A stretch of DNA of 37,650 nucleotides from a virus: the IMG/VR virus record IMGVR_UViG_3300045988_143600; one strand, written 5' to 3'. Below the pieces are notes generated by a model. That model saw only the letters and a program-made list of their open reading frames with translations. It did not search any database and was not told the origin of the DNA. The position numbers and the translations under genes are program-made. This document shows, one piece after another, positions 878-37,650 of this stretch; the stretch's first letter is position 1, and the number at the start of each line of letters is the position of its first letter.

Positions 878-895
878 ATCCAAATCCTCCTGTCC

Positions 896-1793: not shown

Positions 1794-1899
1794 AGCGTTT
1801 TTACCTCCTTGTTTTTCTGCACTCTGCATTTATCAGGGCTTGTGACCTGCGCCGATCGGCGGCTGCATTACAGGAGGGGCACAGCCCCTCTGATACTTA

Positions 1900-2275: not shown

Positions 2276-2278
2276 TTT

Positions 2279-3202
2279 TTATACCGCCATATCCATATAT
2301 TTAGCGATTGCAGACAATCCCTTGGCGGTCACATTGCCGTTATCGAGGGCGTTGGAGTATAGATTGACCGCTCCTCTGATAGCCTGTGGACTTTGAGCGA
2401 TACACAGTAAAAATTCAACAGCAGCAGTGTCCTCTCTGATATCCGGAAAGAGCATTTCGATGTCGCTCTTCTTTATCTGCTTAACGCTGTAAAACCGGGT
2501 ATTCTTCGTCCTGTTGCGTATCTGTGCAAACTCCGCTTTCTGCTTTCCGCCAAGTCTGCTTACCGTGGTTTCGTTGCCGACAAAGCATATTCCAAGGGTC
2601 TGTCCCTTTTCGTCAAAGCAGTCGCAAAGGCTTCGGAGAGTATCAATGGCATTTCTGGTGAGATGCTGGGCTTCGTCCACGATTATCACCATGCCGTCCG
2701 AAAGCTTTGACGAGATTTCCAGCCAGAGTCTGCTCACAGAGCCGGAGGATACGTTCAGCTTAGAACCGATAAGCTCCAGCACGGATTTTGATGACTTGAT
2801 GCACGGATTTACCGTTATGTATATACAGTTTGTGCCGTGCTCACGGTAATACTGCCTGCAAGCCTGTGTTTTGCCTATACCTGCGTCACCGCAGGCTATG
2901 GCAAGACCGCCCTGAAGCTGACAGTTGCGTATGATCTTGTACACGTTAGACGATATTGACGTTTCCTTATAGTCTGTGCCGACATAGATTTCAGCTGCAG
3001 CCTGCTTGGTTACAAAGTATTCAATTACTTTTTTCATCTGCTTATCTACATCGCCGTTGTAGGTACCTGACTTAATTGCAGAGTATGAGCTATCGGATAT
3101 ACCAATCTTTTTGCAGACTGCAGCCGCAGATAGATTTTCCGAGTACTGCAGCTGTTTTATCTGTTCCAATGCCCACTCCTGTTTAGCTGTTAGCTTTTTC
3201 AT
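2279..3202 (-). CDS. MuB-like AAA+ ATPase (transposition target-capture protein)
   Basis: N-terminal HTH-like region, Walker A GDAGIGKT and Walker B IIVDEAQHL. It sits immediately downstream of the DDE transposase. Confidence 0.8.
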   Translation of the reverse strand: MKKLTAKQEWALEQIKQLQYSENLSAAAVCKKIGISDSSYSAIKSGTYNGDVDKQMKKVIEYFVTKQAAAEIYVGTDYKETSISSNVYKIIRNCQLQGGLAIACGDAGIGKTQACRQYYREHGTNCIYITVNPCIKSSKSVLELIGSKLNVSSGSVSRLWLEISSKLSDGMVIIVDEAQHLTRNAIDTLRSLCDCFDEKGQTLGICFVGNETTVSRLGGKQKAEFAQIRNRTKNTRFYSVKQIKKSDIEMLFPDIREDTAAVEFLLCIAQSPQAIRGAVNLYSNALDNGNVTAKGLSAIAKYMDMAV

Positions 3203-3205
3203 TTA

Positions 3206-5224
3206 TTAATCACTCCTCCATTTATTCTTCCGCCTCTCGGCGTTTTCGTTCATTTTATCTATATTGACCACAATATCGTCTCCGGAAGCCTTTGATATAC
3301 TTTCCGGTTCATTATCAGCTCTTATCATAATCACATTGGACGGCATAACGATCTTAAAGCTCTGCTTACCATGTGCTGCCTTGAGAGCGGCAGCCTCCAT
3401 AAGGTCGATCTTATGCTCTGAGTTTAAGCCATCTGTGATATTCTGGGCCTCGGCTTTAATAAACCGTTGTACTCTGCGCTGTAAAGCCATTGCATCGGAA
3501 ATCTCTTCCTTGCTTTCGGTGATGTAATCTATAAGCAGCTTGTCTGCACATTCCCAAGTCCAAAGGTAACGGTCCGATTTATCGTAAACCCTTACGCTTC
3601 TAAGATCGGCGGGATCGTATCTTACATAGACCTCCTCGCCCAGGTGACGGTAAGTGTTTTCATAGTCCATAAACCAGACCTTTTCGCCGGATATTTCAAC
3701 AAATACGCCGTTGCGCTTGATCTTTTGTACCCTTGTTGATCTCATAAGCATAAGATTAAGTTCGGCTTCCGGAGCTTTGCGTATTCCTACAGACTTTATA
3801 TCCATATTCCATACGTCGATACGACTCATTCCTTTGTACTTTGTCTCAGCTCCGCCATATTCCTGCATATTAAAATCACCGTCAATATACATATCAATAT
3901 ATTCTCTAATCTCAAAGTCGCAGGGAATCTTGCCTTCTTTAATTCTACGCTTAAGGCTCTCAGGTCGCTGCATAATAGTGCCGCCGCAGTAACCTTCAAA
4001 CATTCTTGCAAACTGCATTGTGACCGTGCTAAATGTACGCTCAATAGGCTTTGCTTTAGCGTTACGGACGATTGCGTTATGCATCGTGATTCCAAGCCTT
4101 TGGAGTATTGTCGGTGGTTCGATCTCAGGGTTATCGGTTTTCCTGCTTCGATGACCTTTTCCGCCAACGTCATGGGTCATAAACTCTCGACCGTTATCAA
4201 AATATACGGCTTTCGGAATGCCAAATCGCATAATTCCATGCCTTAATGCGATGATTGTTGACTGGGAGTTCGGACTGTCGCATATATTCCAGCCGACCAG
4301 CACTCCGCTTTTGGCATCCAAAAAGGCTGTAAGGTACAGCCTGTGGATCGTGCCGTTATTTTCATCGTAGGACTGTATATCGAACGTGTGGTTATCTGCG
4401 ATCCAGACGTCGTTAGCGTGGAGACCGTCGTACATACGGCTGATATATGGCAGGCATTTATCTTTCATAGCCTTATCGCCGTCGCGCATATATGTAAGCA
4501 CGGCTTGTGGTATTTCCGACTTTATATGCCGCCTGAAAGTATTGTCTGACGGGAAGTTTGATACCATTGACGGATACCACTCTTTTGCACATTCAAGCGT
4601 TAGGTCGTAACAACGCGAAACGGTAGGTTTGTTTTCGGAAAGATAGAAATAGCAAAACTGCTCCCACAGCTCCGGTGGGATACTGCTCTTACCCTTATTG
4701 GCTCCGCCTCGATTTTCACAAAGCCCCTGCAGATTATTATTTCTGTAGGCTGCATACTTGCGGTATAGTATATCCACCGACACTTTGATATCATTATGCT
4801 CGAGCTGACACTTGCCGACGTAAAGCTTATCCACTTCGGTTTTCTTTCCGGGGTATTGATCCCGGTAACGCTGCCAGTCTCTGAGGATATCTACCCAGAG
4901 TGCGATTTCATCACGCTCATCTTCGGAAAACTCTTCGATTGACGTTTTCACAGGCTTTGACGTTTTCACAGGCTTTTTGGGCTGTTTTAATGCATTTTTA
5001 ACAGGCTGTGCAACAAGTTCTAAGCCCGCTTCCGCTCTTTTCTGAGCATAGTATTTTGCCTGCAGGCCTTCGGGGAGTGATGATATTGGGATCATATATT
5101 TAGGACGGTTCCTGTCGTTGATTTCGATATTGCATGACAATTTTCCGTCCTTGCACAGTTTCTTTATATATCGTTCACTGCAGCCTTTAAGATCAGCAGT
5201 TTTGGCAACCGTCAAATATTCCAC
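3206..5224 (-). CDS. MuA-like DDE transposase (rve/integrase core with N-terminal DNA-binding domains)
   Basis: 672 aa. N-terminal HTH (LTVAKTADLKGCSERYIKKLCKDGKL). Catalytic-core motifs VWIADNHTFD and VYFDNGREF. Has the size and MuB-adjacent position typical of Mu A. Confidence 0.85.
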   Translation of the reverse strand: MEYLTVAKTADLKGCSERYIKKLCKDGKLSCNIEINDRNRPKYMIPISSLPEGLQAKYYAQKRAEAGLELVAQPVKNALKQPKKPVKTSKPVKTSIEEFSEDERDEIALWVDILRDWQRYRDQYPGKKTEVDKLYVGKCQLEHNDIKVSVDILYRKYAAYRNNNLQGLCENRGGANKGKSSIPPELWEQFCYFYLSENKPTVSRCYDLTLECAKEWYPSMVSNFPSDNTFRRHIKSEIPQAVLTYMRDGDKAMKDKCLPYISRMYDGLHANDVWIADNHTFDIQSYDENNGTIHRLYLTAFLDAKSGVLVGWNICDSPNSQSTIIALRHGIMRFGIPKAVYFDNGREFMTHDVGGKGHRSRKTDNPEIEPPTILQRLGITMHNAIVRNAKAKPIERTFSTVTMQFARMFEGYCGGTIMQRPESLKRRIKEGKIPCDFEIREYIDMYIDGDFNMQEYGGAETKYKGMSRIDVWNMDIKSVGIRKAPEAELNLMLMRSTRVQKIKRNGVFVEISGEKVWFMDYENTYRHLGEEVYVRYDPADLRSVRVYDKSDRYLWTWECADKLLIDYITESKEEISDAMALQRRVQRFIKAEAQNITDGLNSEHKIDLMEAAALKAAHGKQSFKIVMPSNVIMIRADNEPESISKASGDDIVVNIDKMNENAERRKNKWRSD

Positions 5225-5272
5225 ATCATCACCTCCCGAAGTTACTTGACAAAACTAATGTTTTCTGATATA

Positions 5273-5476
5273 CTAAGTATCAGAGCCAGAACGGTTGTTT
5301 ACGAGGTCGGACAGAAAATCTTCTGTTTCGGTCAATACTGCAAGAATGGTCGCAACATTCCTGCGGAGCTGTTCAGGCTCTATTTTTATGTCCTCAAGGC
5401 AGCTTGCCTGAGCCAGAAGCCGGGCTTGTCCCACCGCATGAGACAGTACTTGTGTTTTAAATTCCTTGTATTTCAT
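5273..5476 (-). CDS. Hypothetical early protein (67 aa)
   Basis: ORF with an AAAGGAAG RBS, directly upstream of the transposase gene. Confidence 0.5.
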   Translation of the reverse strand: MKYKEFKTQVLSHAVGQARLLAQASCLEDIKIEPEQLRRNVATILAVLTETEDFLSDLVNNRSGSDT

Positions 5477-5495
5477 TGGTTACACTTCCTTTCTC

Positions 5496-5536
5496 GGTCT
5501 GCCATCATCAGTACCGGGAGACCGTCCCCGGCAGAC
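5496..5536. repeat. 41-bp direct repeat, copy 1
   Basis: GGTCTGCCATCATCAGTACCGGGAGACCGTCCCCGGCAGAC is identical to 6152..6192. Confidence 0.95.
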
Positions 5537-6151
5537 CGAACCGCCTGTTGCGGCTCGGTTTCGGCTAGAAAAATCGGAATGTATAAGTCTACTCCTTCCG
5601 AAAGAGTACCCTGCGCACTTATACTGCGTTGCACAACCTTGTCGACTAGGTTGATTGAGTTGGCTTTCACATCAGGACTTGCACCTGATAGGCTTACGCT
5701 TGCGAACCTAGCACTATGCGTGAACATTTAGCCGCCCCGATTATTACCGAAACGGCAAGGTAGATAGGATAAAAAGTTATCCTAAGTGGGTCTGATACGC
5801 TCAGACGGGCGGTATCTTTATGTTGTCTTTAGACTGTGTTATAAAAATACAAAAGACGTTCCAGCTGGTGCAAACATTAAGCTCATGCGCTCTCAGCTTG
5901 CATTTACGAGTTCGCACCTTAAGGAAAGTCGGAACCCTTATAACAAAACCTGTACCTCGGCTAATTCAACCCGACGACACGTAGCCAGAACACGTGGTTT
6001 TTAAGTCATACGCTACCGATATTTTATGTCCTCGGTCTACAGACTGTATGACAGGCTTGGTTCAAGATCTAAGTCGTTACCTCTGAGCTTGCAAGCTGCA
6101 GGTGATTCACTATATCCCCTATGGCGGGCAAGCACGGCACCTGCATATTTT

Positions 6152-6192
6152 GGTCTGCCATCATCAGTACCGGGAGACCGTCCCCGGCAGAC
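6152..6192. repeat. 41-bp direct repeat, copy 2
   Basis: Identical to 5496..5536. It abuts the stop codon of the Ner-like gene. Confidence 0.95.
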
Positions 6193-6199
6193 AGCCGAG

Positions 6200-6427
6200 T
6201 TACTGTCGGCTGTTCCGGCTGTTTCGTGATCTGCCGCACAAATCGTCAAGACTGCATTGCAGCACATTGGCTATCCTGATCGTAGTCTTAAGAGAGGGCG
6301 TCAAAACGCCCTGCTCTATCTTGCACACGGTCACATTGCTGATCCCCGCATACTTAGCAAGCTCTCTCTGATTAAGATCACGCTGCTCTCTAATCTGCTT
6401 TATGCTTTTCCCAATATCTGCGCTCAT
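6200..6427 (-). CDS. Ner/Cro-like XRE-family HTH regulator
   Basis: IKQIREQRDLNQRELAKYAGISNVTVCKIEQG is an HTH_3 motif. AAAGGAGGGA RBS precedes the ATG at 6427. It lies in the early operon, divergent from the repressor. Confidence 0.75.
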   Translation of the reverse strand: MSADIGKSIKQIREQRDLNQRELAKYAGISNVTVCKIEQGVLTPSLKTTIRIANVLQCSLDDLCGRSRNSRNSRQ

Positions 6428-6623
6428 AAAGGCGTTCCCTCCTTTTAGCAAAGTATATATCTCTGATAAGAGAGAGGATAAGGTGCATACAGATCAATCC
6501 GGATAGTGTAAGCAACGGTATGATCCAGAACTCGGAATGTCCGCTAAGACTTGTTATGGCACACCATAGCATGATAATGGCAAACATGGTAAGCACCTTT
6601 CCCTCGTCCGTAAGTTTTTTCAT
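6390..6623 (-). CDS. Small membrane protein (2 predicted TM segments)
   Basis: Hydrophobic stretches MFAIIMLWCAITSL and IIPLLTLSGLICMHLILSL. GGAGG-like RBS. The 3' end overlaps the Ner-like start. Confidence 0.5.
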   Translation of the reverse strand: MKKLTDEGKVLTMFAIIMLWCAITSLSGHSEFWIIPLLTLSGLICMHLILSLIRDIYFAKRRERLYERRYWEKHKAD

Positions 6624-6635
6624 AATAAACCCTCC

Positions 6636-7088
6636 TTACTTATACATCATAACGGTGATAACGTCTTTAGCGGCAGCAAGCGGACTGTCTCCTGTGATGC
6701 CTATATCATACACATGACCGTTCTTCATGGTTACAAGCACCCACTCTTCTCCGTTGTCTTCGCAGTAAGTTATATCATCAACATCATCATTGGCGGCATG
6801 GAGCAGGAAGTAGAGCTCTTTTTCTACGAATAAAGCTTTATTCATTATATATCCTCTTATTGCCGGAGTTTGTTCCGCCCTTGTTTGTTGCTCGCCGTAT
6901 TTTTCAGCTATGCAATCAAGATCATCATCTATTGCTGCCTTAGCATCCTCGATTGTATTATAAGCCTTTGGCGAGAAAGCCCCGTAAGGTGATATGCAAA
7001 CATAGCCTATCCTATCGTTACCTGATATCGTATAGCCTCTGTACTCATACATATTCACATCGGTTTCCTTAATCTTATACTTATTCAT
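6636..7088 (-). CDS. Hypothetical protein, first gene of the early operon
   Basis: 150-aa acidic ORF with an AAGGAGGAA RBS, immediately downstream of the predicted early promoter. Confidence 0.55.
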   Translation of the reverse strand: MNKYKIKETDVNMYEYRGYTISGNDRIGYVCISPYGAFSPKAYNTIEDAKAAIDDDLDCIAEKYGEQQTRAEQTPAIRGYIMNKALFVEKELYFLLHAANDDVDDITYCEDNGEEWVLVTMKNGHVYDIGITGDSPLAAAKDVITVMMYK

Positions 7089-7113
7089 TAAAATTCCTCC
7101 TTTTTCGATTGAC

Positions 7114-7175
7114 GTTTAACGCTTTTTGTGTTAAACTTAATTTATCATGGGGTAACTATGCCCTAGAGGTTACCC
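7114..7175. promoter_or_regulatory. Operator-like inverted repeats in the repressor/early switch region
   Basis: GTTTAAC(N9)GTTAAAC at 7114-7136 and GGGTAAC(N12)GTTACCC at 7150-7175, between the early promoter and the first early gene. TTCTAA(T/C)T half-sites are repeated at 7199-7245. Confidence 0.5.
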
Positions 7176-7183
7176 TATAGTAA

Positions 7184-7212
7184 ATTATAACTAGATTTTT
7201 TCTAATTGTCAA
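7184..7212 (-). promoter_or_regulatory. Early promoter (consensus sigma-A type), minus strand
   Basis: The minus strand reads TTGACA-(17 nt)-TATAAT exactly, with the -35 at 7207-7212 and the -10 at 7184-7189. It faces the early operon. Confidence 0.65.
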
Positions 7213-7280
7213 GTGAAATTCTAACTCGAAATTAGAAAAATGCTAATTTCGTGATAAGTAACAAAGGAGATGATTGAATT

Positions 7281-7982
7281 TTGGATATTTTGGATAGAAT
7301 AACTATGCTTTTAGGCAATCGAGAGCAAAAAGAATTGACTAATTACCTGAAATTAAATAATGTTGCTTTTTCAGAATGGAAGTCTGGGAAAAGCAAATCA
7401 TATAGAAAATATCTAATTGAAATTGCTGAATTTTTTGATGTTTCAATAGATTACCTTGTTTACGGCAAAGAAAAAAGCTCACCAGCGGAACAGTTGACCG
7501 ATGATGAGCAAGAGTTACTTACATATTATAAGGAATTAGATTTAATGAAAAAGGGTCAAGTCCTCGAACGTGCCAAGGTCCTTTTTGAGCAGTCAAAAAT
7601 ACCATTAAAAGAGCTTGAAAACAGTGTTTTCATAGAGTACTATTCGTTGCCTGTCAGTGCCGGAACTGGCGTTGATCTGGATGGCTGCGAAAAAGGTATG
7701 TTGGAGGTTAAGAAAACGCAGCTCACTCTTGAGGCTAATTTTGCTCTAAGAGTGTCTGGCAACAGCATGGAGCCTGTATTCCACGACGGAGACGTAGTTC
7801 TGATAGCCTCGCAGCCATCTGTTGAGATCGGCGAGATAGGCATTTTTATACTTAACGGGGAAGGATTTATAAAGAAGTTCGGCGGAGATCGCTTGATTTC
7901 CCTTAACCCGGATTATGATGATATTCCGCTGCATGATTATGATAGTATCTATTGCCGGGGAAAGGTTATTGGAACTGTATGA
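7281..7982 (+). CDS. CI/LexA-type repressor (N-terminal HTH, C-terminal S24 peptidase)
   Basis: HTH region at the N-terminus. The C-terminus LRVSGNSMEPVFHDGDVVLIA...GEGFIKKF carries the Ser/Lys dyad context of S24 autopeptidases. Transcribed divergently from the early operon. The TTG start at 7281 is uncertain; ATG at 7305 is an alternative. Confidence 0.8.
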   Translation: MDILDRITMLLGNREQKELTNYLKLNNVAFSEWKSGKSKSYRKYLIEIAEFFDVSIDYLVYGKEKSSPAEQLTDDEQELLTYYKELDLMKKGQVLERAKVLFEQSKIPLKELENSVFIEYYSLPVSAGTGVDLDGCEKGMLEVKKTQLTLEANFALRVSGNSMEPVFHDGDVVLIASQPSVEIGEIGIFILNGEGFIKKFGGDRLISLNPDYDDIPLHDYDSIYCRGKVIGTV

Positions 7983-8065
7983 TATAAAAATATGAAACTA
8001 AGCAACTTGTGCTTGATCTTCCGACTGTAGTGATTGTTCGAGCCGCACAGTGGGACATTGATAAG

Positions 8066-8089
8066 TTAATGGGAACTAGTTCCCATTAA
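8066..8089. repeat. Perfect 24-bp palindrome downstream of the repressor gene
   Basis: TTAATGGGAACTAGTTCCCATTAA. Followed by TAGTTCC repeats and a tandem ATTTTTCAAT(N3)ATTTTTCAAT at about 8128-8153. Confidence 0.7.
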
Positions 8090-8267
8090 TCGAATTTTTA
8101 GTTCCTATATTCCCGTATAAAATATGGAAATTTTTCAATGAGATTTTTCAATTGAACATTCAAACTATTTTATAAACGTTATAGCTTTAAAATGCGTAAA
8201 TACGCTGTTTTGTGACAATTTTAAAATTTGAAAACAGTTCTAAAACGTTCTAAAAAGGTAAAATTTA

Positions 8268-8316
8268 AAGGTCTTAAAATGCTTTTAAAATTGCATTTTA
8301 AGACCTTATTTTTTTG
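8268..8316 (+). terminator. Rho-independent terminator-like hairpin inside the phage left arm
   Basis: 15-bp perfect stem AAGGTCTTAAAATGC / GCATTTTAAGACCTT with a 10-nt loop, followed by ATTTTTTT. Confidence 0.6.
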
Positions 8317-8420
8317 ACATTCAATTTTCTTATCCGCAAAGCACGTCAACTTTTTGCATATTCAAACCGCCGCATTTGCGCCACTTTCGTGGGTTTTCTA
8401 TGCTAATTCCGAGTTATTCC

Positions 8421-8459
8421 GCATTTTTGCGTTTTTCGGATTTTGCGTGGCGAGCAACA
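8421..8459. repeat. Mu-like left terminal inverted repeat with sub-terminal TTTTGCG motifs
   Basis: The reverse complement reads TGTTGCTCGCCACGCAAAATCCGAAAAACGCAAAAATGC, which matches the right end at 23 of the first 29 positions. It ends in CA on the plus strand. Confidence 0.75.
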
Positions 8460-8667
8460 TCCTCGTGCCTTTAAATTTGTGATAATAAACATAAGATAAA
8501 CAGATACTTACCCGGTGGCTTCTTTAGTGCCAAAACTCTAAGAAAGTTTCATAGAGTGCTACCTATTATGCACACGTTCACGGCTACTACCTACCATTCG
8601 AGACTTTTCCGTTTCAGGCTGTCGTCATTCACCGATTTAATCGTAGTTATCTTTATGTTCGAGGACT

Positions 8668-8747
8668 TAGTACAATAATGTACTACCGACATATATAATA
8701 TACCCCATTTTTGTACTATTGTCAATAGAACAATTATGTACTATGAT
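8668..8747 (+). promoter_or_regulatory. Promoter/operator region of the XRE repressor gene
   Basis: Palindrome TAGTACAATAATGTACTA at 8668-8685. Near-palindrome TTGTACTATTG-T-CAATAGAACAA at 8711-8733, overlapping a TTGTCA -35 (8719-8724). After a 17-nt spacer comes TATGAT (8742-8747). A further TGTACTA lies at 8737-8743. Confidence 0.55.
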
Positions 8748-8777
8748 ATAATTTGTATAAATAAACAAATAAGTGAG

Positions 8778-9083
8778 GTGATTTTTATTAATTATTATCA
8801 AAGACTTAGAGATTTAAGAGAGGATATGGAACTAAATCAAAGCATGATAGCGAAAATTCTTGACACTTCTCAAAAGCAATATAGTAGGTGGGAAACAGGT
8901 GAATATCCTATCCCATTTGAAAAAGTTATACAGTTAGCAAAATTTTATAAAGTGAGTATTGATTATATAGCAGGACTGACGAATGACAAAAGGGGAATAG
9001 GCTACAAAGCAGACAGTAACAGCAAATACAACATAACACAGCAGAATAATAATAGCGCTGTTGTAAAAATTAAGGAGAAATAA
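8778..9083 (+). CDS. XRE-family HTH repressor of the inovirus-like element
   Basis: NYYQRLRDLREDMELNQSMIAKILDTSQKQYSRWETGEYPIPFEKVIQLAKFYKVSIDYI is a canonical HTH_3 domain. The start is uncertain. The ATG at 8736 lies upstream of the predicted -10. GTG at 8778 or ATT at 8787, after a GTGAGGTGA RBS, is more plausible. Confidence 0.7.
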   Translation: MIFINYYQRLRDLREDMELNQSMIAKILDTSQKQYSRWETGEYPIPFEKVIQLAKFYKVSIDYIAGLTNDKRGIGYKADSNSKYNITQQNNNSAVVKIKEK

Positions 9084-9317
9084 ATGTTTGGTTTAGACAA
9101 GACTTTAGCATATATACTTATAGGACGAATTATCATAGATGCGTTAATCTTTTTGCTTATTATTTATCTAATCTGCAAATTTCTTGACCTTTGCAAAACT
9201 GTTAATGATCTTTCAAAGAGGAACAAGGAGCAAACGGAACTATTGAAACAGCAGAATGAAACGCTTGTGAAACTAGGGCAAATCATCATAAAGATAAACC
9301 AAGACAAAGACGGATAA
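9084..9317 (+). CDS. Small membrane protein with C-terminal coiled coil
   Basis: TM segment LAYILIGRIIIDALIFLLIIYLI. Translationally coupled to the XRE gene (TAAATG). Confidence 0.55.
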   Translation: MFGLDKTLAYILIGRIIIDALIFLLIIYLICKFLDLCKTVNDLSKRNKEQTELLKQQNETLVKLGQIIIKINQDKDG

Positions 9318-9329
9318 CAAATCACAATC

Positions 9330-9698
9330 CACACTTCAAGCCGTCGCCTAAACGGCGAGGATACAAAGTGCTGACCACTACGGATTAAAGTTGAGAAGCG
9401 GTGCTTGTTTGTAGCTCCGATATGACACAATCAGAACAAAGGGAACGCACAGCCTTGCGACAGTGTGCAGACCTGCACCCCAGAGGTGGGCGCGTGGCGA
9501 TGTCACACAAAGTTTTTCACTGCGTTCAAAACTTTGGCGACCGCCACTCAGGCAGGGGGCAGGCAAGGCGCACAGCACAGCTTTGTGCGCCCTGCACCCT
9601 CAACATTTAATGCTTCGGACATAAAAAACGCCCTGCGCACTTCGTGCGTGGGCTTGGGGTGGTAGAGGTCGTCGGTTCAAATCCGGTCACTCCGACCA
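9330..9698 (+). ncRNA. GC-rich structured non-coding island (candidate ncRNA or host-derived att arm)
   Basis: Nested perfect helices at 9494-9499/9542-9547, 9508-9516/9528-9536 and 9567-9574/9584-9591. A UUCG-type capped stem at 9632-9652 has G-U pairs valid only on the plus strand. CTGCACCC is repeated at 9473-9480 and 9592-9599. No convincing ORF is present. Confidence 0.3.
9655..9698 (+). other. tRNA-like 3' fragment / minihelix (T-arm, acceptor 3' strand, discriminator, CCA)
   Basis: GTCGG-TTCAAAT-CCGGT (T-arm) followed by CACTCCG-A-CCA. TGGGGTG at 9655-9661 can pair with the acceptor 3' strand. No D arm or anticodon arm is present, so this is not an intact tRNA. Confidence 0.45.
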
Positions 9699-9707
9699 AT
9701 ATGTAAA

Positions 9708-9742
9708 AACGGCTTTCCGCTATTGTGGAGAGCCGTTTTTTT
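9708..9742 (+). terminator. Rho-independent terminator directly after the tRNA-like CCA end
   Basis: 11-bp stem AACGGCTTTCC / GGAGAGCCGTT (one G-U pair) with an 8-nt loop, followed by a T-run. Confidence 0.75.
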
Positions 9743-9777
9743 AGTTGAATAGTGCTAAAGATTTTCACAAGTAAATA

Positions 9778-9948
9778 TTAATCATCATAACAAGGTACAG
9801 AGCAATTCTCACAAGCAGGAGAATCTGTAAGATAAAATATACATTCCTCACAGTGGGCATAACAACAACAGTTATCATAATCGCATACCTTATCGGCACA
9901 TTCGCCATGGTCAGTATTTTCTTTACACCAAAAATTAAACTCTTTCAT
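9778..9948 (-). CDS. Cys-rich small protein (56 aa)
   Basis: MKEFNFWCKENTDHGECADKVCDYDNCCCYAHCEECIFYLTDSPACENCSVPCYDD. AAAGGAG RBS precedes the ATG at 9948. It resembles the ORF at 1900..2064. Confidence 0.5.
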   Translation of the reverse strand: MKEFNFWCKENTDHGECADKVCDYDNCCCYAHCEECIFYLTDSPACENCSVPCYDD

Positions 9949-10000
9949 TTTAAAAGCTCCTTTATTATTCAAATTTGAGATTATTCACAGCTTTGCACAT
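9943..10000. repeat. 58-bp direct repeat, copy A (partner at 10202..10259, 2 mismatches)
   Basis: TTTCATTTTAAAAGCTCCTTTATTATTCAAATTTGAGATTATTCACAGCTTTGCACAT. It duplicates the last codons of the integrase gene plus the RBS and start of the next ORF. Confidence 0.9.
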
Positions 10001-10207
10001 TCAGAAATCATTTTGAGAAAAACGCTCCTTGAGTTTTTTACGATTGACGATATACAACTCAGACAGGCTACACATTGAATTCATCAGAAGTCGACGTAAT
10101 TCATCCATATCAGCAGTAACGCACATACGATTTATAGAACCTTCGAGCAAATCAGCGAGATTCATAGTTTCTTTATGTTTTTGCTCCGTATAAAATTTAC
10201 TTTTCAT
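10001..10207 (-). CDS. Hypothetical small protein (68 aa)
   Basis: This ORF lies between the two 58-bp repeats. It has the same RBS and MK start context as 9778..9948. Confidence 0.45.
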   Translation of the reverse strand: MKSKFYTEQKHKETMNLADLLEGSINRMCVTADMDELRRLLMNSMCSLSELYIVNRKKLKERFSQNDF

Positions 10208-10259
10208 TTTAAAAACTCCTTTATTATTCAAATTTGAGATTATTCACAGCCTTGCACAT
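10202..10259. repeat. 58-bp direct repeat, copy B
   Basis: Partner of 9943..10000. Covers the integrase 3' end (…CKAVNNLKFE stop). Confidence 0.9.
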
Positions 10260-11114
10260 CTGATTAAAATTGCTATGTACATAACGCTGGGTAGTTGTTA
10301 TATCAACGTGTCCGAGCAATGCTCTAAGGGTTTCAATATCTGCACCGCACTGAATAAGATACGTAGCATAGCTATGTCTAAGCTTGTGCGGGGTGAGATA
10401 CTGTAAATCAGGATACTTTGTTTTTTGTTGCTCATAGAACGTTCTATAGAGCCTGTTATAACGTCTAAGAGATATTACTGTATGCGTTATAGGTGAAACG
10501 AACAGAAAGCCGTCTGAAACGTCCTGAGAGCGTATCTGATGAAGAATAGCTATTGCATTACTATGCAAGGGGATAAGCCTATCACGGCGAGATTTTGTGG
10601 TCTGTACAATCCTATCACCGCATGAAGTATGTACGAGTGTCTGACAAACTTTAAGATATCTGTTATCAAGGTCAATGTTATCCCAACTAAGAGCGAGAAG
10701 TTCACCACGGCGGAGACCTGTCTACAAGTCAAGCTGAAACATTCTGCAAACTCTACTATCATCATCAAAGAGATGTACGAGATTATCGGGGCTAAAATAT
10801 TCAGCTTCTTTTTTTATACGTTTTGGAGGTTTAATATAGTCGCAAGGGTTTTTGTCACAATAACCATTAACTATAGCTTCACGGAATACACGTTTAAGTA
10901 AGAAATATGAACGTCTTTGGCGGTCATTACTGTAAGATAGGGTGGATTTAAGACAATTCTGAATATCAATAGGCTTTACGCTCAGAAGCTCCATATCGGC
11001 TATATAACCGAAGTGTTTTTGATTTATATAGTAATAGTCCTTATAGCAATCATAGGCTATCACATCAACGCAGTATGCGTTATAGAACATCTCAAACCAT
11101 TCTTTAAAAATCAT
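10224..11114 (-). pseudogene. int: Tyrosine recombinase/integrase interrupted by a single in-frame TAG (10719..10721)
   Basis: The two track ORFs, 10722..11114 and 10224..10568, are in the same frame. Reading through gives ...MFQLDL*TGLRRGELLALSWDNIDL...HKLRHSYATYLIQCGADIETLRALLGHVDITTTQRYVH, which contains the R...HxxR...Y catalytic signature. Confidence 0.75.
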
Positions 11115-12112
11115 AGGACATCATCATTTCCATTCTCTTTAAGATATTGAAGTATATCATTGCAGTTCTTTTCGACTTGACTTGAAAAGGTGAAACTACT
11201 TTCATACTGATAACAGACATTAGCACGAGGGGGAGAAACTATCGGCAAATCGTCTTTAAAGTCTGAATTGCAAAAGATCTCTTTAGTTTTGCGGACAATG
11301 TTCTTGCTACTCCAGAAGAATTTGCCGAATATCTTCTTTACGTCCTTTGTTATGTACTTAGTGACATAGAAAGCTAAATTAGACATTTGTCCGTAAGTCT
11401 GAATAGCGGTTGAGAAACCATAACGCCAATCAGACACGTTATACACAACAGGCAAATCAGATATATCACAGCCGAGTTTATCACATATATGCAGGCGCTT
11501 TATAGTATCTATTTTAAGGGGCTTGTCATGACCCTTAACAAGACGTGTACCACTATCAACGAACTTAAAGTCACAATCGTTTATAAGGGCGTGGCAATGT
11601 ATACCGCCTTTTTTGTGATACTCAGGAACTAAGATATATTTAAGCCCTTTTCTACTAACTGCATTTTCAAGCCATTTTTTCAAAGGCTTTATGACTTCTT
11701 TAGGGTTTGTGCGGTCAAGGTTATCGCCATTAAAGGTAATAGTAAGGAAGTATTTCCAATCATTTTGATAAACTATATCAAAGATACTTTGCTTTGCTCT
11801 TTGAACACTATCGGAACGAACTTCACCGCTTTGTGACTGCTTATCTTTAAACTTACGAGTATCAAGCATATCAAGCATTATGTTTCCGTTTTCGTCCTCA
11901 TACTCAAAATAACATATGTAATTTTCACGAGCCGTTTTAAGTTGCTCTTGTCTTGAACGTTCGTCAATACTATGCTCATGCTTGCAGTGATACTCAAATG
12001 CAGGGTCTTTAAATATGTGTCGATCAGAACGTGTTATAGTGTAACTGCCGTCACGATATTCCTTTATCTTTGTATTGCACTTGACCTCTTTAGAAGACAT
12101 TTTTAGGGACAT
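11111..12112 (-). CDS. HUH rolling-circle replication initiator (Rep)
   Basis: Motif 1 is FLTITF, motif 2 (HUH) is GGIHCHALI and motif 3 is YVTKYITK. GGGAG RBS. Confidence 0.75.
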   Translation of the reverse strand: MSLKMSSKEVKCNTKIKEYRDGSYTITRSDRHIFKDPAFEYHCKHEHSIDERSRQEQLKTARENYICYFEYEDENGNIMLDMLDTRKFKDKQSQSGEVRSDSVQRAKQSIFDIVYQNDWKYFLTITFNGDNLDRTNPKEVIKPLKKWLENAVSRKGLKYILVPEYHKKGGIHCHALINDCDFKFVDSGTRLVKGHDKPLKIDTIKRLHICDKLGCDISDLPVVYNVSDWRYGFSTAIQTYGQMSNLAFYVTKYITKDVKKIFGKFFWSSKNIVRKTKEIFCNSDFKDDLPIVSPPRANVCYQYESSFTFSSQVEKNCNDILQYLKENGNDDVL

Positions 12113-12148
12113 TTATATCAACTCCCATTTATTAGGTGAGTGCTTTTT

Positions 12149-12223
12149 GTGGCTAATATCAAGTAATAGCCACACGCACCGCAGGGCGGCGCAAGCGCTC
12201 GCCCCTGCGGTCGCTCGTGGCTA
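12149..12223. promoter_or_regulatory. GC-rich hairpin cluster, candidate rolling-circle origin or packaging hairpin
   Basis: Alternative stems TGTGGCTA (12149-12156) / TAGCCACA (12167-12174) and TAGCCAC (12167-12173) / GTGGCTA (12217-12223). The second pair encloses CCGCAGGG (12179-12186) / CCCTGCGG (12203-12210). This is the only GC-rich stretch in an AT-rich element, and it lies between the Zot-like stop and the Rep start. Confidence 0.5.
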
Positions 12224-13015
12224 TACGCCACGCCTTTTTCGCAGGTTTCTGCTTGTCTTTCTATCGTGCATGATGTCACTTGTGACATCTACTCCACGAT
12301 TGGCAAGTATTTCCGTGTCGCTGATGTACTCCTTATCAAGCATATTATCTACAAGCTGAGAAGTATCATATAGCTGTCGACTCTGATTAGTCTGCAAATA
12401 CAAACGGCTGTAAAGCTTTTTCGGCATATATGACTTATTCTCCGTATACGCTTCATACTCGTCTATATCATAGGTTTTAACCTTAATAAGACGTGTATAA
12501 GGGTGATGGAATGTAGCACGGCACGTTGACACTGTAGCCGTTATATCTCGTATCTGTTTATCAAGTAGATTAAATCGTTGCACTGTAGCAAGTATCATCA
12601 TTTTGCGCTTTCTACATTGACAAAGGTGCTGAAAAAGCGGTTTAGAGACGGCTCTTTTACCACCTGAGAAATCTCGTGAATTGAAGATAGTGCCTATCTC
12701 ATCAATTACGACTATACAATTCTTAGGAGCGTGCAGGATATCTTGTGCGGAATTAAGCTTATAAATATTCGTCCACTCAGGGAAGTTTTGAAGATTGATA
12801 TTTGTAAGTATAGACAACTGAGGATAACGCACGCAATAGTTATATGCTATCTGAGCAAGGGTTGAGGTTTTACCTGTTCCGAATTTACCGGTATAAAGAT
12901 GTATGCCCCAACCTTGAAAGATAGCGGAATTATTGAAGTATGCACCAAAAAGGTGGTCATATACCTCATAGGTGATAAAGGGCGGTATTTGTTTTATGTA
13001 GTCAAATATAATCAT
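12221..13015 (-). CDS. pI/Zot-like P-loop morphogenesis ATPase
   Basis: Walker A is GKFGTGKTS and Walker B is CIVVIDEIG. Size and position after the small TM genes are as in inoviruses. No clear C-terminal TM segment was seen, so the assignment is by family resemblance and context. Confidence 0.6.
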   Translation of the reverse strand: MIIFDYIKQIPPFITYEVYDHLFGAYFNNSAIFQGWGIHLYTGKFGTGKTSTLAQIAYNYCVRYPQLSILTNINLQNFPEWTNIYKLNSAQDILHAPKNCIVVIDEIGTIFNSRDFSGGKRAVSKPLFQHLCQCRKRKMMILATVQRFNLLDKQIRDITATVSTCRATFHHPYTRLIKVKTYDIDEYEAYTENKSYMPKKLYSRLYLQTNQSRQLYDTSQLVDNMLDKEYISDTEILANRGVDVTSDIMHDRKTSRNLRKRRGV

Positions 13016-13025
13016 AACAAATCAC

Positions 13026-13235
13026 CTACACAGCACTTGCACAACGTGTCATGCGTATCATCACATTATAAAAGAACTTGCAGAAGATACAAAGCATAAC
13101 CACAGCGAATATAAATGCCATGCCGAGGAGCAAAGCGTCATATCTATTCATGACTTCTTGCGAGAGATCACAGCCCATTGACTTCAAAAGCTGAAAAAAT
13201 GGGTTATTTTCATCAAACACTATGTGTACTTTCAT
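13026..13235 (-). CDS. Small membrane protein
   Basis: 69 aa, with the TM segment ALLLGMAFIFAVVMLCIFCKFF. Confidence 0.45.
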   Translation of the reverse strand: MKVHIVFDENNPFFQLLKSMGCDLSQEVMNRYDALLLGMAFIFAVVMLCIFCKFFYNVMIRMTRCASAV

Positions 13236-13449
13236 TATCGTTCACCTCACAATCATCAGTTTCAACCGCAGGAACGGCTTTTATTTCAACATCTTCACCG
13301 AACATAAGAAACTCTATAAGCTGTTTTCTGTTTCCGCTGAACTCATGTTCAGCTTTAAAGTTTCTAAGGTCAGTGAAGAAACCTATAACACCGCTTATAG
13401 TACAAACCATAAAGCAGACAACGAGTATAAACAAAACCAAGTTAAGCAT
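13213..13449 (-). CDS. Small membrane protein (78 aa from ATG 13449)
   Basis: A strong AGGAGG RBS precedes MLNLVLFILVVCFMVCTISGVIGFF. Confidence 0.5.
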   Translation of the reverse strand: MLNLVLFILVVCFMVCTISGVIGFFTDLRNFKAEHEFSGNRKQLIEFLMFGEDVEIKAVPAVETDDCEVNDNESTHSV

Positions 13450-13453
13450 TTTT

Positions 13454-13528
13454 CTACCTCCTAACGAGCCATACAAGAGAAAGGACCATAAGAGCAACGA
13501 GGACAAATAAAACAATATTTACTAACAT
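13454..13528 (-). CDS. Tiny hydrophobic peptide (24 aa), pVII/pIX-like by size only
   Basis: Hand translation gives MLVNIVLFVLVALMVLSLVWLVRR. It is tightly packed between neighbouring ORFs and is too short for confident calling. Confidence 0.3.
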   Translation of the reverse strand: MLVNIVLFVLVALMVLSLVWLVRR

Positions 13529-13535
13529 AATAAAC

Positions 13536-13700
13536 CTACTTTCTAAGCATAAAATATAATAAAGTCAAGCTGATTGATAAAAGCATACCGCCTATAATAG
13601 CCGAACCGAGAGTAAAACTGTATTTGCCAAATGGAAACGTATAAGACATACAGTTCATCAGGAATTTAAAAACTAATTCAATACCATGTATTATATCCAT
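13536..13700 (-). CDS. Small membrane protein (54 aa), pVI-like position
   Basis: Hand translation gives MDIIHGIELVFKFLMNCMSYTFPFGKYSFTLGSAIIGGMLLSISLTLLYFMLRK. The GAGGTGA RBS overlaps the stop of the pIII-like gene. Confidence 0.45.
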   Translation of the reverse strand: MDIIHGIELVFKFLMNCMSYTFPFGKYSFTLGSAIIGGMLLSISLTLLYFMLRK

Positions 13701-13708
13701 AATTCACC

Positions 13709-15463
13709 TCACGTAGGTAAAACAAGCTTGATAAGCGCAATAGCTAAGAACAGCACAAACCATGCAGAGAACACAGCATAAAACCATGACGGCAAACAAG
13801 AAAGAGCGGCGGTGAGAAAATCCCAATATGTACCCGTTGTACTGAATATAGATTTTATATCCGTGAAATCAACAGAGCCGAAATTTGCATTAATTTTTTT
13901 CTTATCAAGATATTTGTTATAATCATCAGGTTGCATATATGAACCATCATTTATAACACCATCTGAACCCTTAGCAAGGTCAACGTCAGTGACCTTTGAC
14001 GGCGGTATATTACACAAGTCTTTAAGCTTTGTAGTCGAGGGATTATAAGTATTTCCGTCCTTGTCTTTATATACTTTAGGTACATAATCAGGAAACTTCT
14101 CATAAGAGAAAGGGTCTGAAATAACAGAATAAACACGATAAGCCTTGAATGTTTCAGGCTTGCCTGTTTCTTCATCAACGGACTTTACAAAATCATCAAT
14201 CTTCTCACACGTCTTAAGGTTTGTAAAATCTTCTTGATAGGCATACGAGCCGAGCCACGTTGAAGAATTTGTATCTTCTGTTTTTTCACCATTCTGAGGA
14301 GTAACATGACCGTTATTCTTTACAAATACACCGATAACATTAACATAAAGCTTGCTATCATCAGTAAGACCATGTGTTTTATAATCAATAGAAGTGAGAT
14401 CAAAAGATACAGTAATCTTGCCGTCACGAGGAATAGTATAAATAGGCGTTCGACCTTGATATAATGTTAAATACGGCTCAAAAGTATCAACAGTATCATT
14501 ACTATTCAAATCGTCAGAAGAAGAGCCGTCAGACTTAATTTTTTCATCATCTTGACCCTTGTAGTAATTGCCGTCATGGTTCATTGCATAAAGCACAACA
14601 TCTTCATCAAAGAAACGTTGTAGATCATCACCAGCGTTAAGAAGATTTTTTGAAAGACAACATAAAACGGCATAAGTGCCAGAGCCGTAAGCTTTTCCTA
14701 AGTCTTTTTCATTGAACGTTTTTAAAAACTCAGGTGAAAGCTTTATATCAAGGTTTATATTATTATTTTCAGCTGCTACAAGTCCATTTTCATCAGCATT
14801 AGCACCACCCTTTGACGGATAGTAAATTTTATTTTGCATATTCAATGAAAGTTCAGGTGTATATGTAACAGTAAACGGAGCAGGAACAACGGTGGGGTCT
14901 GTAGGGGTTACATCTTTATCAGGGTTAGACCAATCATAAACCTTAGCATTATGATAATAAACATAGGTATCAGCACCATTATCAGAATCGACACCAACGT
15001 GCATAGCAACACCGCAACTAACACTGGATATATCACCTATATTGGCAGAAAATTCAAAAAGACTAGATTGAGCTTTAAATACAAGTTGATTTTTATCATT
15101 ATAGCGATAAACATACCGATATGTTTTGTTGTCATCAGAATGACGATGATAATTTGAAATATAAAATTGTGATTGATTCAAAGTATCTATATCACCGCCG
15201 CTCAAATTAAGGTAAAATTTTTGAACAGTGTCAGGAACAAGATATATAAGAGAGTACTCTTTGCGGTTAGGCGAATAAAAGGCTATATATGAATCGGGTG
15301 TAAAACCCAAGTCAGAATTTATTTTTTTCAACGCCATATCAATAAAAAGTTTCATACCACCAGAACCATCAGACTGCTTTAAAGCGAATGCAGGAACAGC
15401 ACAACATATCATCACAACAAGTGCAGAGATCATACACAACACTTGCTTAATCTTTTTTCTCAA
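13709..15463 (-). CDS. pIII-like minor coat/adsorption protein (signal peptide plus C-terminal membrane anchor)
   Basis: The N-terminus MRKKIKQVLCMISALVVMICCAVPAFA is signal-like. The C-terminus WFYAVFSAWFVLFLAIALIKLVLPT is a membrane anchor. It is the largest ORF and follows the coat gene, as gene III does in Ff-type phages. TTG start. Confidence 0.55.
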   Translation of the reverse strand: MRKKIKQVLCMISALVVMICCAVPAFALKQSDGSGGMKLFIDMALKKINSDLGFTPDSYIAFYSPNRKEYSLIYLVPDTVQKFYLNLSGGDIDTLNQSQFYISNYHRHSDDNKTYRYVYRYNDKNQLVFKAQSSLFEFSANIGDISSVSCGVAMHVGVDSDNGADTYVYYHNAKVYDWSNPDKDVTPTDPTVVPAPFTVTYTPELSLNMQNKIYYPSKGGANADENGLVAAENNNINLDIKLSPEFLKTFNEKDLGKAYGSGTYAVLCCLSKNLLNAGDDLQRFFDEDVVLYAMNHDGNYYKGQDDEKIKSDGSSSDDLNSNDTVDTFEPYLTLYQGRTPIYTIPRDGKITVSFDLTSIDYKTHGLTDDSKLYVNVIGVFVKNNGHVTPQNGEKTEDTNSSTWLGSYAYQEDFTNLKTCEKIDDFVKSVDEETGKPETFKAYRVYSVISDPFSYEKFPDYVPKVYKDKDGNTYNPSTTKLKDLCNIPPSKVTDVDLAKGSDGVINDGSYMQPDDYNKYLDKKKINANFGSVDFTDIKSIFSTTGTYWDFLTAALSCLPSWFYAVFSAWFVLFLAIALIKLVLPT

Positions 15464-15480
15464 TTTATCAACTTCCTTTC

Positions 15481-15517
15481 AAAAAAATTAAGCGGAGCAA
15501 TTTGAATTACTCCGCTT
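15481..15517 (-). terminator. Rho-independent terminator between the coat gene and the pIII-like gene
   Basis: The minus strand reads AAGCGGAG-(12 nt)-CTCCGCTT followed by AATTTTTTT. The placement is analogous to the terminator after gene VIII in Ff phages. Confidence 0.65.
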
Positions 15518-15533
15518 ATGTAAATGGTTTTGC

Positions 15534-15689
15534 TTATACAGCGTGTCTGAACTTTGCGAAAAGTCCTGCACCAGAGCCGAGAAGAGACAGACCTACAAGA
15601 ATTGCAATAGGTACGTTGCTTGTCATAGCGTCCCAACAAGAACCAAAAACAGTAACGGCATTACTAAGCATTGTTGTTACAGCTTCCAT
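15534..15689 (-). CDS. pVIII-like major coat protein (51 aa), below the ORF-track cut-off
   Basis: Hand translation gives MEAVTTMLSNAVTVFGSCWDAMTSNVPIAILVGLSLLGSGAGLFAKFRHAV. It has an acidic N-terminal part, a single TM helix and a basic C-terminus (K, R, H). AAAGGAG RBS. Confidence 0.6.
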   Translation of the reverse strand: MEAVTTMLSNAVTVFGSCWDAMTSNVPIAILVGLSLLGSGAGLFAKFRHAV

Positions 15690-15743
15690 TATTAGCAAAA
15701 CTCCTTTCTTATTAAATTTTTATAACAGCGGTTTCACCGCTAA

Positions 15744-16061
15744 TTATTTTGTGTTGCGGTGAAGTGTTCCGTCTGCATTGATTACGGTGATATCAACAAG
15801 CTGAGAACGTCCGTTAAAAATCTGATAGTTCAGCATTACATCACAGCCGAGAAGCTTATTGAAATCCTCAGAATTTCCGTTAAGTCTGATTGCATTTTCG
15901 GTCGGTATTTTCAGTGTATCGACCATTTTTCCATGACAGTCGGGGTTATCAACTTCCTGCAGAAGCTGAAAGACGACCTTTTCAGGGCTGTTTATCTGCT
16001 TGCCCTCTATAACTCCGTTAAATGCTTTCTTTTTTGTCCAGCCTACGATAGTTGTTTTCAT
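15744..16061 (-). CDS. First gene of the structural operon; possible gene V-like ssDNA-binding protein (by position and size only)
   Basis: 105 aa from the ATG at 16061 (MKTTIVGWTKKKAFNG...). It lies upstream of the coat gene, as gene V does. No motif-level support is available. Confidence 0.35.
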   Translation of the reverse strand: MKTTIVGWTKKKAFNGVIEGKQINSPEKVVFQLLQEVDNPDCHGKMVDTLKIPTENAIRLNGNSEDFNKLLGCDVMLNYQIFNGRSQLVDITVINADGTLHRNTK

Positions 16062-16097
16062 GTTTTTTTCCTTTCTGAGGTTTTTCGGCTTTTCCTC

Positions 16098-37612: not shown

Positions 37613-37650
37613 ACAGATGAAGCATTTCAGCGAGTTTCTGCAATTATATT
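37596..37650. repeat. 55-bp terminal overlap, identical to 1..55
   Basis: Exact repeat of the window start. Confidence 0.9.

Follow-up and report, generated by a model that had tools for sequence, protein, structure and literature searches.

When a GC-rich, hairpin-laden stretch of viral DNA runs out in what looks like the 3' end of a tRNA, close to an integrase gene, is it an attachment site, a piece of captured host DNA or an RNA with a function of its own? We considered this question for a locus in the IMG/VR virus record IMGVR_UViG_3300045988_143600, the whole 37,650-nt stretch of which is called the window below. The locus belongs to a 7.6-kb inovirus-like integrative element, designated E, into which a 30-kb Mu-like phage has transposed. 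A first-pass annotation had offered three readings: an attP arm with the 3' end of a gene for a host tRNA or transfer-messenger RNA (tmRNA), so that integration restores that gene, a captured host fragment, or a genuine tRNA- or tmRNA-like non-coding RNA (ncRNA). Judged by comparison with related loci (given L numbers here), the tRNA-like end is a known kind of feature, a prophage attachment (att) site, and the adjoining island is a real, conserved and undescribed structured element, the function of which is putative.

The tRNA-like end and the attachment site

The locus ends in GTCGG-TTCAAAT-CCGGT-CACTCCG-A-CCA at 9671-9698, exactly as had been described, and the terminator reported directly after it is there as well, as a hairpin with a T-run at 9704-9741. 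The host gene sharing this 3' segment, which it had been proposed to look for, was found: it is tRNA-Pro(GGG), to which the window is identical over 47 nt. Positions 9653-9699 equal L003:156-202 in the gene L003:126-202, i.e. the 3' 46 nt of the tRNA together with one further base. The full gene reads CGGGGTG-TGGCGCAGATTGGTAGCGCG-CTACC-TTGGGGT-GGTAG-AGGTC-GTCGG-TTCAAAT-CCGGT-CACTCCG-A-CCA, and the identity begins at 9653, the last base of the 5' strand of the anticodon stem. The 5' half is thus missing, in line with the view that no D or anticodon arm exists, but the window does retain the variable loop and GGTAG, the anticodon stem's 3' strand. TGGGGTG at 9655-9661 is not a strand that closes a minihelix with the acceptor; it consists of the anticodon loop with its anticodon GGG and one base more, the first of GGTAG.

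The 28-mer GTCGGTTCAAATCCGGTCACTCCGACCA was found in 64 IMG/VR stretches. In about half of these ARAGORN calls a complete 77-nt tRNA-Pro(GGG) ending in the 28-mer, usually beside a divergent tRNA-Met gene, and the rest hold the fragment only. Both forms occur at the junctions of four lysogens (L020, L047, L087 and L113). Their attL and attR share 94-95 nt at 93-99% identity, corresponding to 9653-9747 of the window. At attL, the host promoter, the full tRNA and the terminator are followed by the integrase side of E; at attR, the island is followed by the tRNA fragment, the terminator and then host DNA. Because the complete tRNA stands at the integrase end of E, the restored 3' half of the tRNA comes from E, and the displaced 3' half of the host stays at the island end. 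A T-arm variant, GCCTG/CAGGT in place of GTCGG/CCGGT, occupies attL or attR depending on the lysogen; since the variants swap sides, the exchange takes place 5' of the T arm.

With exact identity to the 3' part of a host tRNA, flanking direct repeats and an adjacent tyrosine integrase gene (its open reading frame (ORF) ends 479 bp from 9745, close to the 500 bp first estimated), 9653-9747 is, on the strength of these junctions, the attachment site of E in an ordinary textbook tRNA-integration arrangement. The integrase would recombine attP with the tRNA-Pro(GGG) gene, as tyrosine recombinases do at such sites. The attP reading of the first-pass annotation was therefore right for 9653-9747 and for a tRNA gene, but its tmRNA option falls away and the 320-nt island is left unexplained by it.

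An anticodon-loop sublocation class of tRNA att sites, with the examples P4 and HP1, was reportedly defined by Williams in 2002. The site of E differs in nothing essential from the tRNA-gene att sites of tyrosine-integrase prophages, which likewise carry the tRNA sequence from the anticodon loop to the 3' end, restore the gene on integration, and have an adjacent integrase gene, a flanking direct repeat and a complete tRNA at one end. Its repeat is fairly long (94-95 nt) because the tRNA terminator is included, and its integrase copy has a nonsense codon. This codon, W131* (TGG to TAG at 10722-10724), is the sole disruptive difference from L036, in which the integrase gene is intact (296 amino acids); unless it reflects a sequencing error, it may prevent the copy in the window from integrating or excising. 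Among the canonical features of inovirus prophages, Roux et al. 2019 (PMC6813254) list att repeats in tRNA genes.

Two other interpretations of the tRNA-like sequence were set aside. A group I intron in a split tRNA does not fit, as identity to the tRNA sets in only at the anticodon loop, nothing upstream corresponds to a 5' half and no intron match was obtained. The motif GTCACTCCGA, which repeats the 3' end of the tRNA in most relatives (alignment columns 94-103), was considered as a degenerate older att copy and judged to be a chance resemblance, being not kept in the window, L132 and L084. In L041, L002, L033, L032, L036, L051 and L047 (alignment A1, columns 330-339), the att core is bordered directly on its left by TGCGTGGGCT, a tandem duplication of 10 nt. 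The contigs L064/L003 (IMGVR_UViG_3300045988_167846) and L037 carry the 3' fragment of tRNA-Pro two or three times, which indicates tandem arrays of different elements at one tRNA gene. A second inovirus-like lineage, with replication initiators (Rep) 41-42% identical to that of E, occurs on several of the multi-fragment contigs.

The island as a conserved structured module

The sharply higher GC content first noticed for the island is real, at 54.8% in 9330-9652 against 32.6% in 8460-9329 and 36.1% in 9748-11114. Compared with 100 dinucleotide shuffles, its folding has a z score of -4.2 on the plus strand and -5.5 on the minus strand, and none of the shuffles folds as well. The statement that it holds no plausible ORF needs some qualification, as ORFs of 53-69 amino acids exist, but none of them is conserved across sequence types. 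Insertions of 13-22 nt at the hairpin tips of relatives are not multiples of three, so that a conserved reading frame is ruled out. Rfam gave no match to the island at its gathering scores or at E values up to 10 (searched over 9250-9800), nor at E values up to 1 in L084, L134, L136 and L150.

The island is 86-100% identical in 79 loci, always within the context of E, and more divergent copies were reached via relatives of the upstream ORF and of Rep. In L083/L084 the island is 72% identical and is followed by the same tRNA fragment with a different host terminator. L134, with a Rep 75% identical to that of E, has a different integrase and no tRNA fragment, and the island core is retained. A second island sequence type is found in L136 (Rep 55% identical) and L150 (52%); L136 ends in a fragment of tRNA-Pro(CGG), and in L150 a fragment of tRNA-Pro(GGG) is found 450 nt away from the core. 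L135, L148 and L149 have no island, and its position is taken by long inverted repeats in L149 and by a 12-bp hairpin in L148.

A pattern scan of 185,579 species genomes gave one true match, inside an E prophage, and one chance match. The corresponding metagenome scan gave 44 true matches, all of the window type and all in E context, along with two chance matches, and a relaxed scan of viral sequences added only chance hairpins to the known set. With BLASTN, neither the window-type nor the L150-type island had a match in phage collections or in the plasmid collection PLSDB. As a separate observation, purine-rich GAGCAG(G) repeats stand in the place of the island in L137 (4520-4700, minus strand) and L199, before a fragment of tRNA-Pro(CGG).

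Five sequence types, represented by the window type, L084, L134, L136 and L150, have a core in common. It consists of the long hairpin P3, a linker, the hairpin P4 in the form GCAGGGGG - 28-32 nt - CCCTGCACCC, and a tail (Table 1). In these types, P3 has total lengths of 54, 67, 71, 68 and 76 nt, and its 6-bp base with an AT bulge is kept in all of them. The linker is TCAG, or TCGAAGA in the second type; the tail is TC or AC; and the 28-32 variable nucleotides between GCAGGGGG and CCCTGCACCC fold into a hairpin of their own.

The nested helices that had been read from the single sequence proved to be conserved across the five types. In an alignment of 16 sequences from these types, 93.7% of the paired cells for 39 predicted pairs can pair (96% in P3), and changes on both sides were seen in 21 of the 39 pairs, including 12 of the 19 in P3. 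None of 500 shuffles reached the observed pairing and covariation, and registers slid by 1-3 columns pair at 34-46%. The base helix of P4 is invariant and hence provides no covariation evidence; MAFFT misaligned P4 of type B. Of the two small upstream hairpins, P1 shows a compensatory change from U-A to C-G in L084 and P2 is kept in type A sequences. A long-range plus-strand helix proposed by RNAalifold, pairing 9400-9413 with 9558-9566 and 9594-9598, was rejected as it is absent in L084.

At the att-proximal end, a stem of the UUCG type with G-U pairs that work only on the plus strand had been described. The stem exists at 9635-9649, as part of the hairpin He, but it reads GCGCAC-UUC-GUGCGU with a 3-nt loop, and the G-U pair is found in 17 of 47 unique relatives, against A-U in 23 and U-U in 7. 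Read on the minus strand, He and the run TTTTTT next to it look like an intrinsic terminator; in L084 a hairpin and a run are kept at this position with a different sequence. A scan with a terminator consensus called no terminators and also missed the obvious hairpin at 9704-9741, and was not used as evidence.

Because the core is present in L134 without a tRNA fragment, lies 450 nt from the att site in L150 and is maintained by compensatory changes, the island is independent of the att site. It is a conserved structured module of E, separate from att.

Possible functions of the island

E carries a probable plus-strand origin between zot and rep, the hairpin GTGGCTATTACTTGATATTAGCCAC. Its loop, ACTTGATATTA, carries the nick motif CTTGATA of the phiX174/pC194 type and matches the core of the phiX174 origin. 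Six of eight relatives have the identical 25-mer, and the other two, L135 and L147, depart from it by one or two loop bases; the stem is the same in all eight, and the Reps are 50-75% identical. A GC-rich hairpin of variable sequence (at about 12175-12215 in the window) precedes it in every relative. The hairpin is likely the nick site, as predicted from its loop and conservation. The loop is alike, but the Rep of E belongs to the REP_ORF2-G2P family and is neither phiX174 gpA nor pC194 Rep_1, and nicking is a prediction. With a nick-type hairpin on the rep strand, the minus strand of the window is expected to be the displaced, packaged strand. The island keeps a single orientation relative to rep and the nick site in the five types.

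We hypothesized that the island is a cis-acting hairpin cassette on the packaged single strand, a tentative proposal to which we give clearly less than an even chance. It would act at the DNA level on the displaced and packaged strand, that is, the minus strand of the window, and would serve complementary-strand priming, packaging or both, possibly as a counterpart of the intergenic region of the Ff phages and of the single-strand origins of rolling-circle plasmids. The combination of an att copy of tRNA-Pro with such a DNA-level cassette is our best explanation of the locus as a whole, with a probability that falls just short of even. Several observations speak for action at the DNA level. 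No other stretch of E that lacks coding sequence on both strands is as long as the island, which is extensively hairpinned and conserved in structure, as is expected for a single-strand origin or packaging region. It is present or absent like a cassette, with other hairpins substituting for it in relatives. GC-rich hairpins also adjoin the nick site of E, and a distant deposited inovirus has a GC-rich inverted repeat of about 300 nt in its intergenic region.

In the Ff phages (M13, f1, fd), the intergenic region contains a packaging-signal hairpin, the hairpins of the minus-strand origin and the plus-strand origin. Like the island, it comprises a few hundred non-coding bases with several imperfect hairpins in the small rolling-circle genome of a filamentous phage, past the end of a transcription unit and in a fixed orientation relative to the replication initiator gene. 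In contrast, the island has no sequence similarity to it, the nick site of E lies elsewhere (between zot and rep), the island is missing in some close relatives, no mimic of an RNA-polymerase promoter was seen in it, and the strand on which it would be active is putative.

The single-strand origins ssoA, ssoU, ssoT and ssoW of Gram-positive rolling-circle plasmids and the initiation sites of the phiX174 type have been reviewed (PMC5714925). Like the cassette proposed here, they are structured, orientation-dependent, non-coding cassettes of the displaced strand that are modular, can be exchanged between replicons and are dispensable in some relatives, but the island lacks the CS-6 of ssoA and has no similarity to the plasmids in PLSDB.

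Among deposited genomes, those of the uncultivated gut Inoviridae bajarodino virus 76 (PQ006119; L151) and the Dulem viruses have a related Rep (at most 34% identical), Zot, a repressor and a circular genome of 5-9 kb. In bajarodino virus 76, a 436-nt intergenic region (2930-3365) is dominated by one giant GC-rich imperfect inverted repeat; it shows no similarity to the P3/P4 core, and neither an integrase nor a tRNA att site is annotated in the record.

A number of points weigh against a DNA-level cassette acting on the minus strand. As L135, L148 and L149 have no island, it is not an indispensable origin or packaging signal for the family. No -35/-10 promoter mimic was found on reading both strands of P3 and P4, and the CS-6 of ssoA (TAGCGT/TAGCGA) is absent, with no TAGCG in the island on either strand; this excludes membership in the ssoA group and leaves other origin types unaffected. 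High GC in an AT-rich genome is also a classic signature of structured RNA, and the operon of the XRE-type regulator reads into the island with no terminator between them.

The evidence on the strand is weak and mixed. Thermodynamic comparison with RNA and DNA parameters and the counting of G-U pairs give no consistent answer between them. Where only one side of a pair has changed in the strand-symmetric hairpins of 47 unique islands of the window type, a G-T pair results on the minus strand in nine helix columns and on the plus strand in two (one-sided binomial p about 0.03). Even without selection, such an excess could arise in a single-stranded genome from mutation biased towards C-to-T. 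P3 is more stable on the minus strand in four of five types. Against this, the plus strand gives the more stable P4 interior in each of the five divergent types, that of L150 has four G-U pairs on the plus strand and none on the minus strand, and He has its plus-strand G-U pair in the 17 sequences mentioned above. Finally, the 37.6-kb circle in which the locus was found may exist as an episome, or the assembly may have closed it through the 95-nt att repeat.

The same observations bear on the idea that the island is a structured ncRNA, transcribed from the plus strand at the 3' end of the XRE-regulator operon and ending at the tRNA terminator (9704-9741) or processed upstream of it, with a possible role in stabilising the message of the regulator or, as a small RNA, in lysogeny or immunity. 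We regard this, the main rival, as somewhat less likely. In the filamentous phage Cf, ncRNAs are implicated in immunity. Structured RNA typically shows the features seen here, namely high GC within AT-rich surroundings, conserved helices with variable tips, and conserved unpaired junction motifs. On the plus strand, a terminator follows the island in window-type sequences and L134, and there is none between the upstream ORF and the island; in type A, the minus-strand terminator-like He with its T-run would shield the island from antisense transcription; and the P4 interior (with up to four G-U pairs) and He favour the plus strand. On the other hand, none of the five types has an Rfam family on either strand, the one-sided changes (9:2) and the stability of P3 favour the minus strand, and the island is more conserved than the hypervariable regulator module that it would serve and is missing in several relatives that share the layout of the regulators.

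Its position makes one think instead of the P arm of attP, in which the hairpins and the repeated motifs GCAGG and CCTGCAC(C) of the island would bind the N-terminal domain of the integrase, an excisionase or bending proteins. The island does lie 0-320 nt from the crossover region, opposite the integrase, which is the usual place of arm-type sites, and the distant relatives L137 and L199 have their GAGCAG repeats in the same place. This is nevertheless improbable: the core, including GGCAGGGGG and CCCTGCACCCTC, is retained in L134 with an unrelated integrase and no tRNA fragment, it is far from att in L150, L135 and L148 lack it despite related integrases and the shared tRNA target, and selection acts on base pairing (compensatory changes, variable tips) and not on sequence alone. 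The sharply different composition and the absence from some relatives could also mean foreign DNA from a GC-richer genome or a miniature mobile element, without function in E, and the captured host fragment of the first-pass annotation is of the same kind. We consider this highly improbable, since the core was recovered from a single species genome, inside the E prophage itself, all 44 true metagenomic matches are in E context, phage and plasmid collections yielded no match, neither terminal repeats nor a target duplication were seen, and compensatory changes keep the structure across types with Reps only 52-75% identical.

The possibility of a genuine tRNA- or tmRNA-like RNA, with a T arm, acceptor and CCA that would serve for aminoacylation, for cleavage by RNase P or RNase Z, or for priming, is scarcely credible. 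The T arm, the 7-nt acceptor strand, the discriminator A and the CCA are perfect, and Rfam 15 gives a weak tmRNA match at 9656-9698 (6.1 bits, E = 2.9, against a gathering score of 47), the only one of the tRNA clan on 9250-9800, where no tRNA match was obtained. However, a real tRNA-Pro gene contains all 47 nt exactly, and att homology accounts for them in full. ARAGORN, which had been recommended along with Rfam as a check, calls no tRNA or tmRNA gene in the window, even with permuted forms allowed. What was taken for the 5' acceptor strand is the anticodon loop, and the end would be of the C1-G72 kind, in which G at position 72 needs C or U at position 1, whereas tmRNA begins with G1-C72; a reading of the island sequence found no CGGRGTG motif. 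L134, moreover, has the island core without any tRNA fragment. With the T arm, acceptor and CCA accounted for by an ordinary prophage attachment site, the idea of a tRNA-like RNA can be dropped.

What is left over is a conserved, structured and unannotated element of about 110-140 nt without an Rfam counterpart, carried by a widespread human-gut inovirus-like prophage of Hominimerdicola and relatives. There is some chance, though we would not bet on it, that the P3/P4 core (bulged hairpin, TCAG, GCAGGGGG - 28-32 nt - CCCTGCACCC, ACCCUC) represents an undescribed class of structured elements confined to the integrative inoviruses of gut Ruminococcaceae. Such a class could be a new ncRNA of the lysogeny module, or a new single-strand origin or packaging signal of Gram-positive filamentous phages. 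To our knowledge, the cis-acting signals of these phages (complementary-strand origin, packaging signal) are essentially uncharacterised, and the P3/P4 core and the near-invariant CTTGATA hairpin are concrete candidates for them.

Element E and the composite circle

Table 1. Features of the locus, of element E and of the Mu-like phage in the window
Feature	Coordinates	Strand	Remarks
Element E, 7.6 kb	8460-16097		circularly permuted, attP internal; ends here are the TCCTC duplication
XRE-type regulator	8736-9083	plus	
Membrane-like ORF, 77 amino acids	9084-9317	plus	XRE operon (8736-9317) reads into the island
GC-rich structured non-coding island	9330-9652		from composition and conservation
Hairpin Ha, TCGCC/GGCGA	9344-9358		just past the stop of the upstream ORF; invariant in 21 window-type sequences, also in L132 and L084
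P1 (GTGCA/TGCAC) and P2 (CCCA/TGGG), small hairpins	9465-9490		
P3, long hairpin	9494-9547		base GTGGCG, AT bulge, GTC...GAC, closing CGCCAC; variable tip
TCAG linker, P4 and ACCCTC tail	9548-9601		P4 itself 9552-9595, GCAGGG...CCCTGC around a variable hairpin
Small hairpin, A-run and hairpin He (GCCC-T-GCGCAC-TTC-GTGCGT-GGGC)	9610-9653	minus	direct reading
attP core	9653-9699	plus	exact copy of the tRNA-Pro(GGG) 3' part, anticodon loop to CCA and one base
Rest of the 94-95-nt att repeat	9700-9747	plus	includes the tRNA terminator hairpin 9704-9741
Tyrosine integrase of E	10224-11114	minus	Pfam Phage_integrase and PHROG integrase matches
Rolling-circle replication initiator (REP_ORF2-G2P)	11111-12112	minus	Pfam REP_ORF2-G2P
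Probable plus-strand origin, hairpin GTGGCTATTACTTGATATTAGCCAC	12149-12173	minus	between zot and rep; CTTGATA in the loop
Zot / pI-like morphogenesis ATPase	12221-13015	minus	
Mu-like phage, 30.0 kb	16098-37595 and 1-8459		splits E between 16097 and 8460
DDE transposase of the Mu-like phage	3206-5224	minus	
LexA-like repressor	7281-7982		part of the Mu-like phage

On its minus strand, E has genes for the integrase, the REP_ORF2-G2P Rep, the Zot/pI ATPase and two ORFs of 130 and 584 amino acids. The deposited genomes closest in Rep are Inoviridae (bajarodino and Dulem viruses), at no more than 34% identity. With a Zot/pI ATPase and a rolling-circle initiator in a 7.6-kb genome (5-10 kb being expected for an Inoviridae-like element), E is, judged by its genes, an inovirus-like (filamentous-phage-like) integrative element. 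The coat proteins of E were not identified. The one species genome in which the pattern scan found E is that of Hominimerdicola aceti, its host, in the strain of NZ_JAOQJZ010000005. Across the compared loci, E measures 7.6-8.7 kb.

In lysogens, the order is tRNA, 9700-10001, 10192-14909, 15383-16097, 8470-9310, island and tRNA fragment. In the window, the island, the att core and the integrase side are contiguous in a permuted E, which is the configuration of attP in an excised circle or of a tandem-prophage junction.

The module of the XRE regulator and the small ORFs is 70-95% identical between relatives and far more variable than the rest of E. In many relatives (L079:3258-3545, L084:676-969 and L132:852-1154, among others), an additional ORF of 95-100 amino acids, absent from the window, stands between the 77/84-amino-acid ORF and the island. 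Beside the integrase, a 58-nt direct repeat, 97% identical, occupies 9943-10000 and 10202-10259, so that two small ORFs (9778-9972 and 10001-10231) share their 5' ends and upstream sequence; both ORFs begin with MNNKG.FKMK, and relatives have one cassette or the other. A search of viral contigs with Rep added only window-type elements, L199 (of the L137 type) and the group at 41-42% Rep identity. In that group, GC-rich stretches repeat GCAGGGGG about every 60 nt.

The first 55 bases of the window (1-55) are the same as the last 55 (37596-37650), so that the window represents a circular contig of 37,595 bp. This circle is the 7.6-kb integrative inovirus-like element E with a 30-kb Mu-like phage transposed into it. 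The ends of the Mu-like phage are TG...CA, and a 5-bp target duplication, TCCTC, lies on both sides (8460-8464 and 16093-16097). The empty target is present in L078 and L060, and 16097 is joined directly to 8460 in L036, L020, L047, L060 and L078. The structural genes of the Mu-like phage are on the minus strand. Since E is interrupted by this phage, the LexA-like repressor belongs to the Mu-like phage and the XRE gene to E. A Mu-like phage within an inovirus-like element is an unusual phage-in-phage arrangement that merits attention of its own.

The Mu-like phage also carries known structured RNAs on its minus strand. Two type II hammerhead ribozymes (5493-5566 and 6149-6220; 57.7 and 57.0 bits) are spaced 656 nt apart inside a 52-nt direct repeat, and a RAGATH-28 RNA lies at 35779-35870 (46.9 bits).

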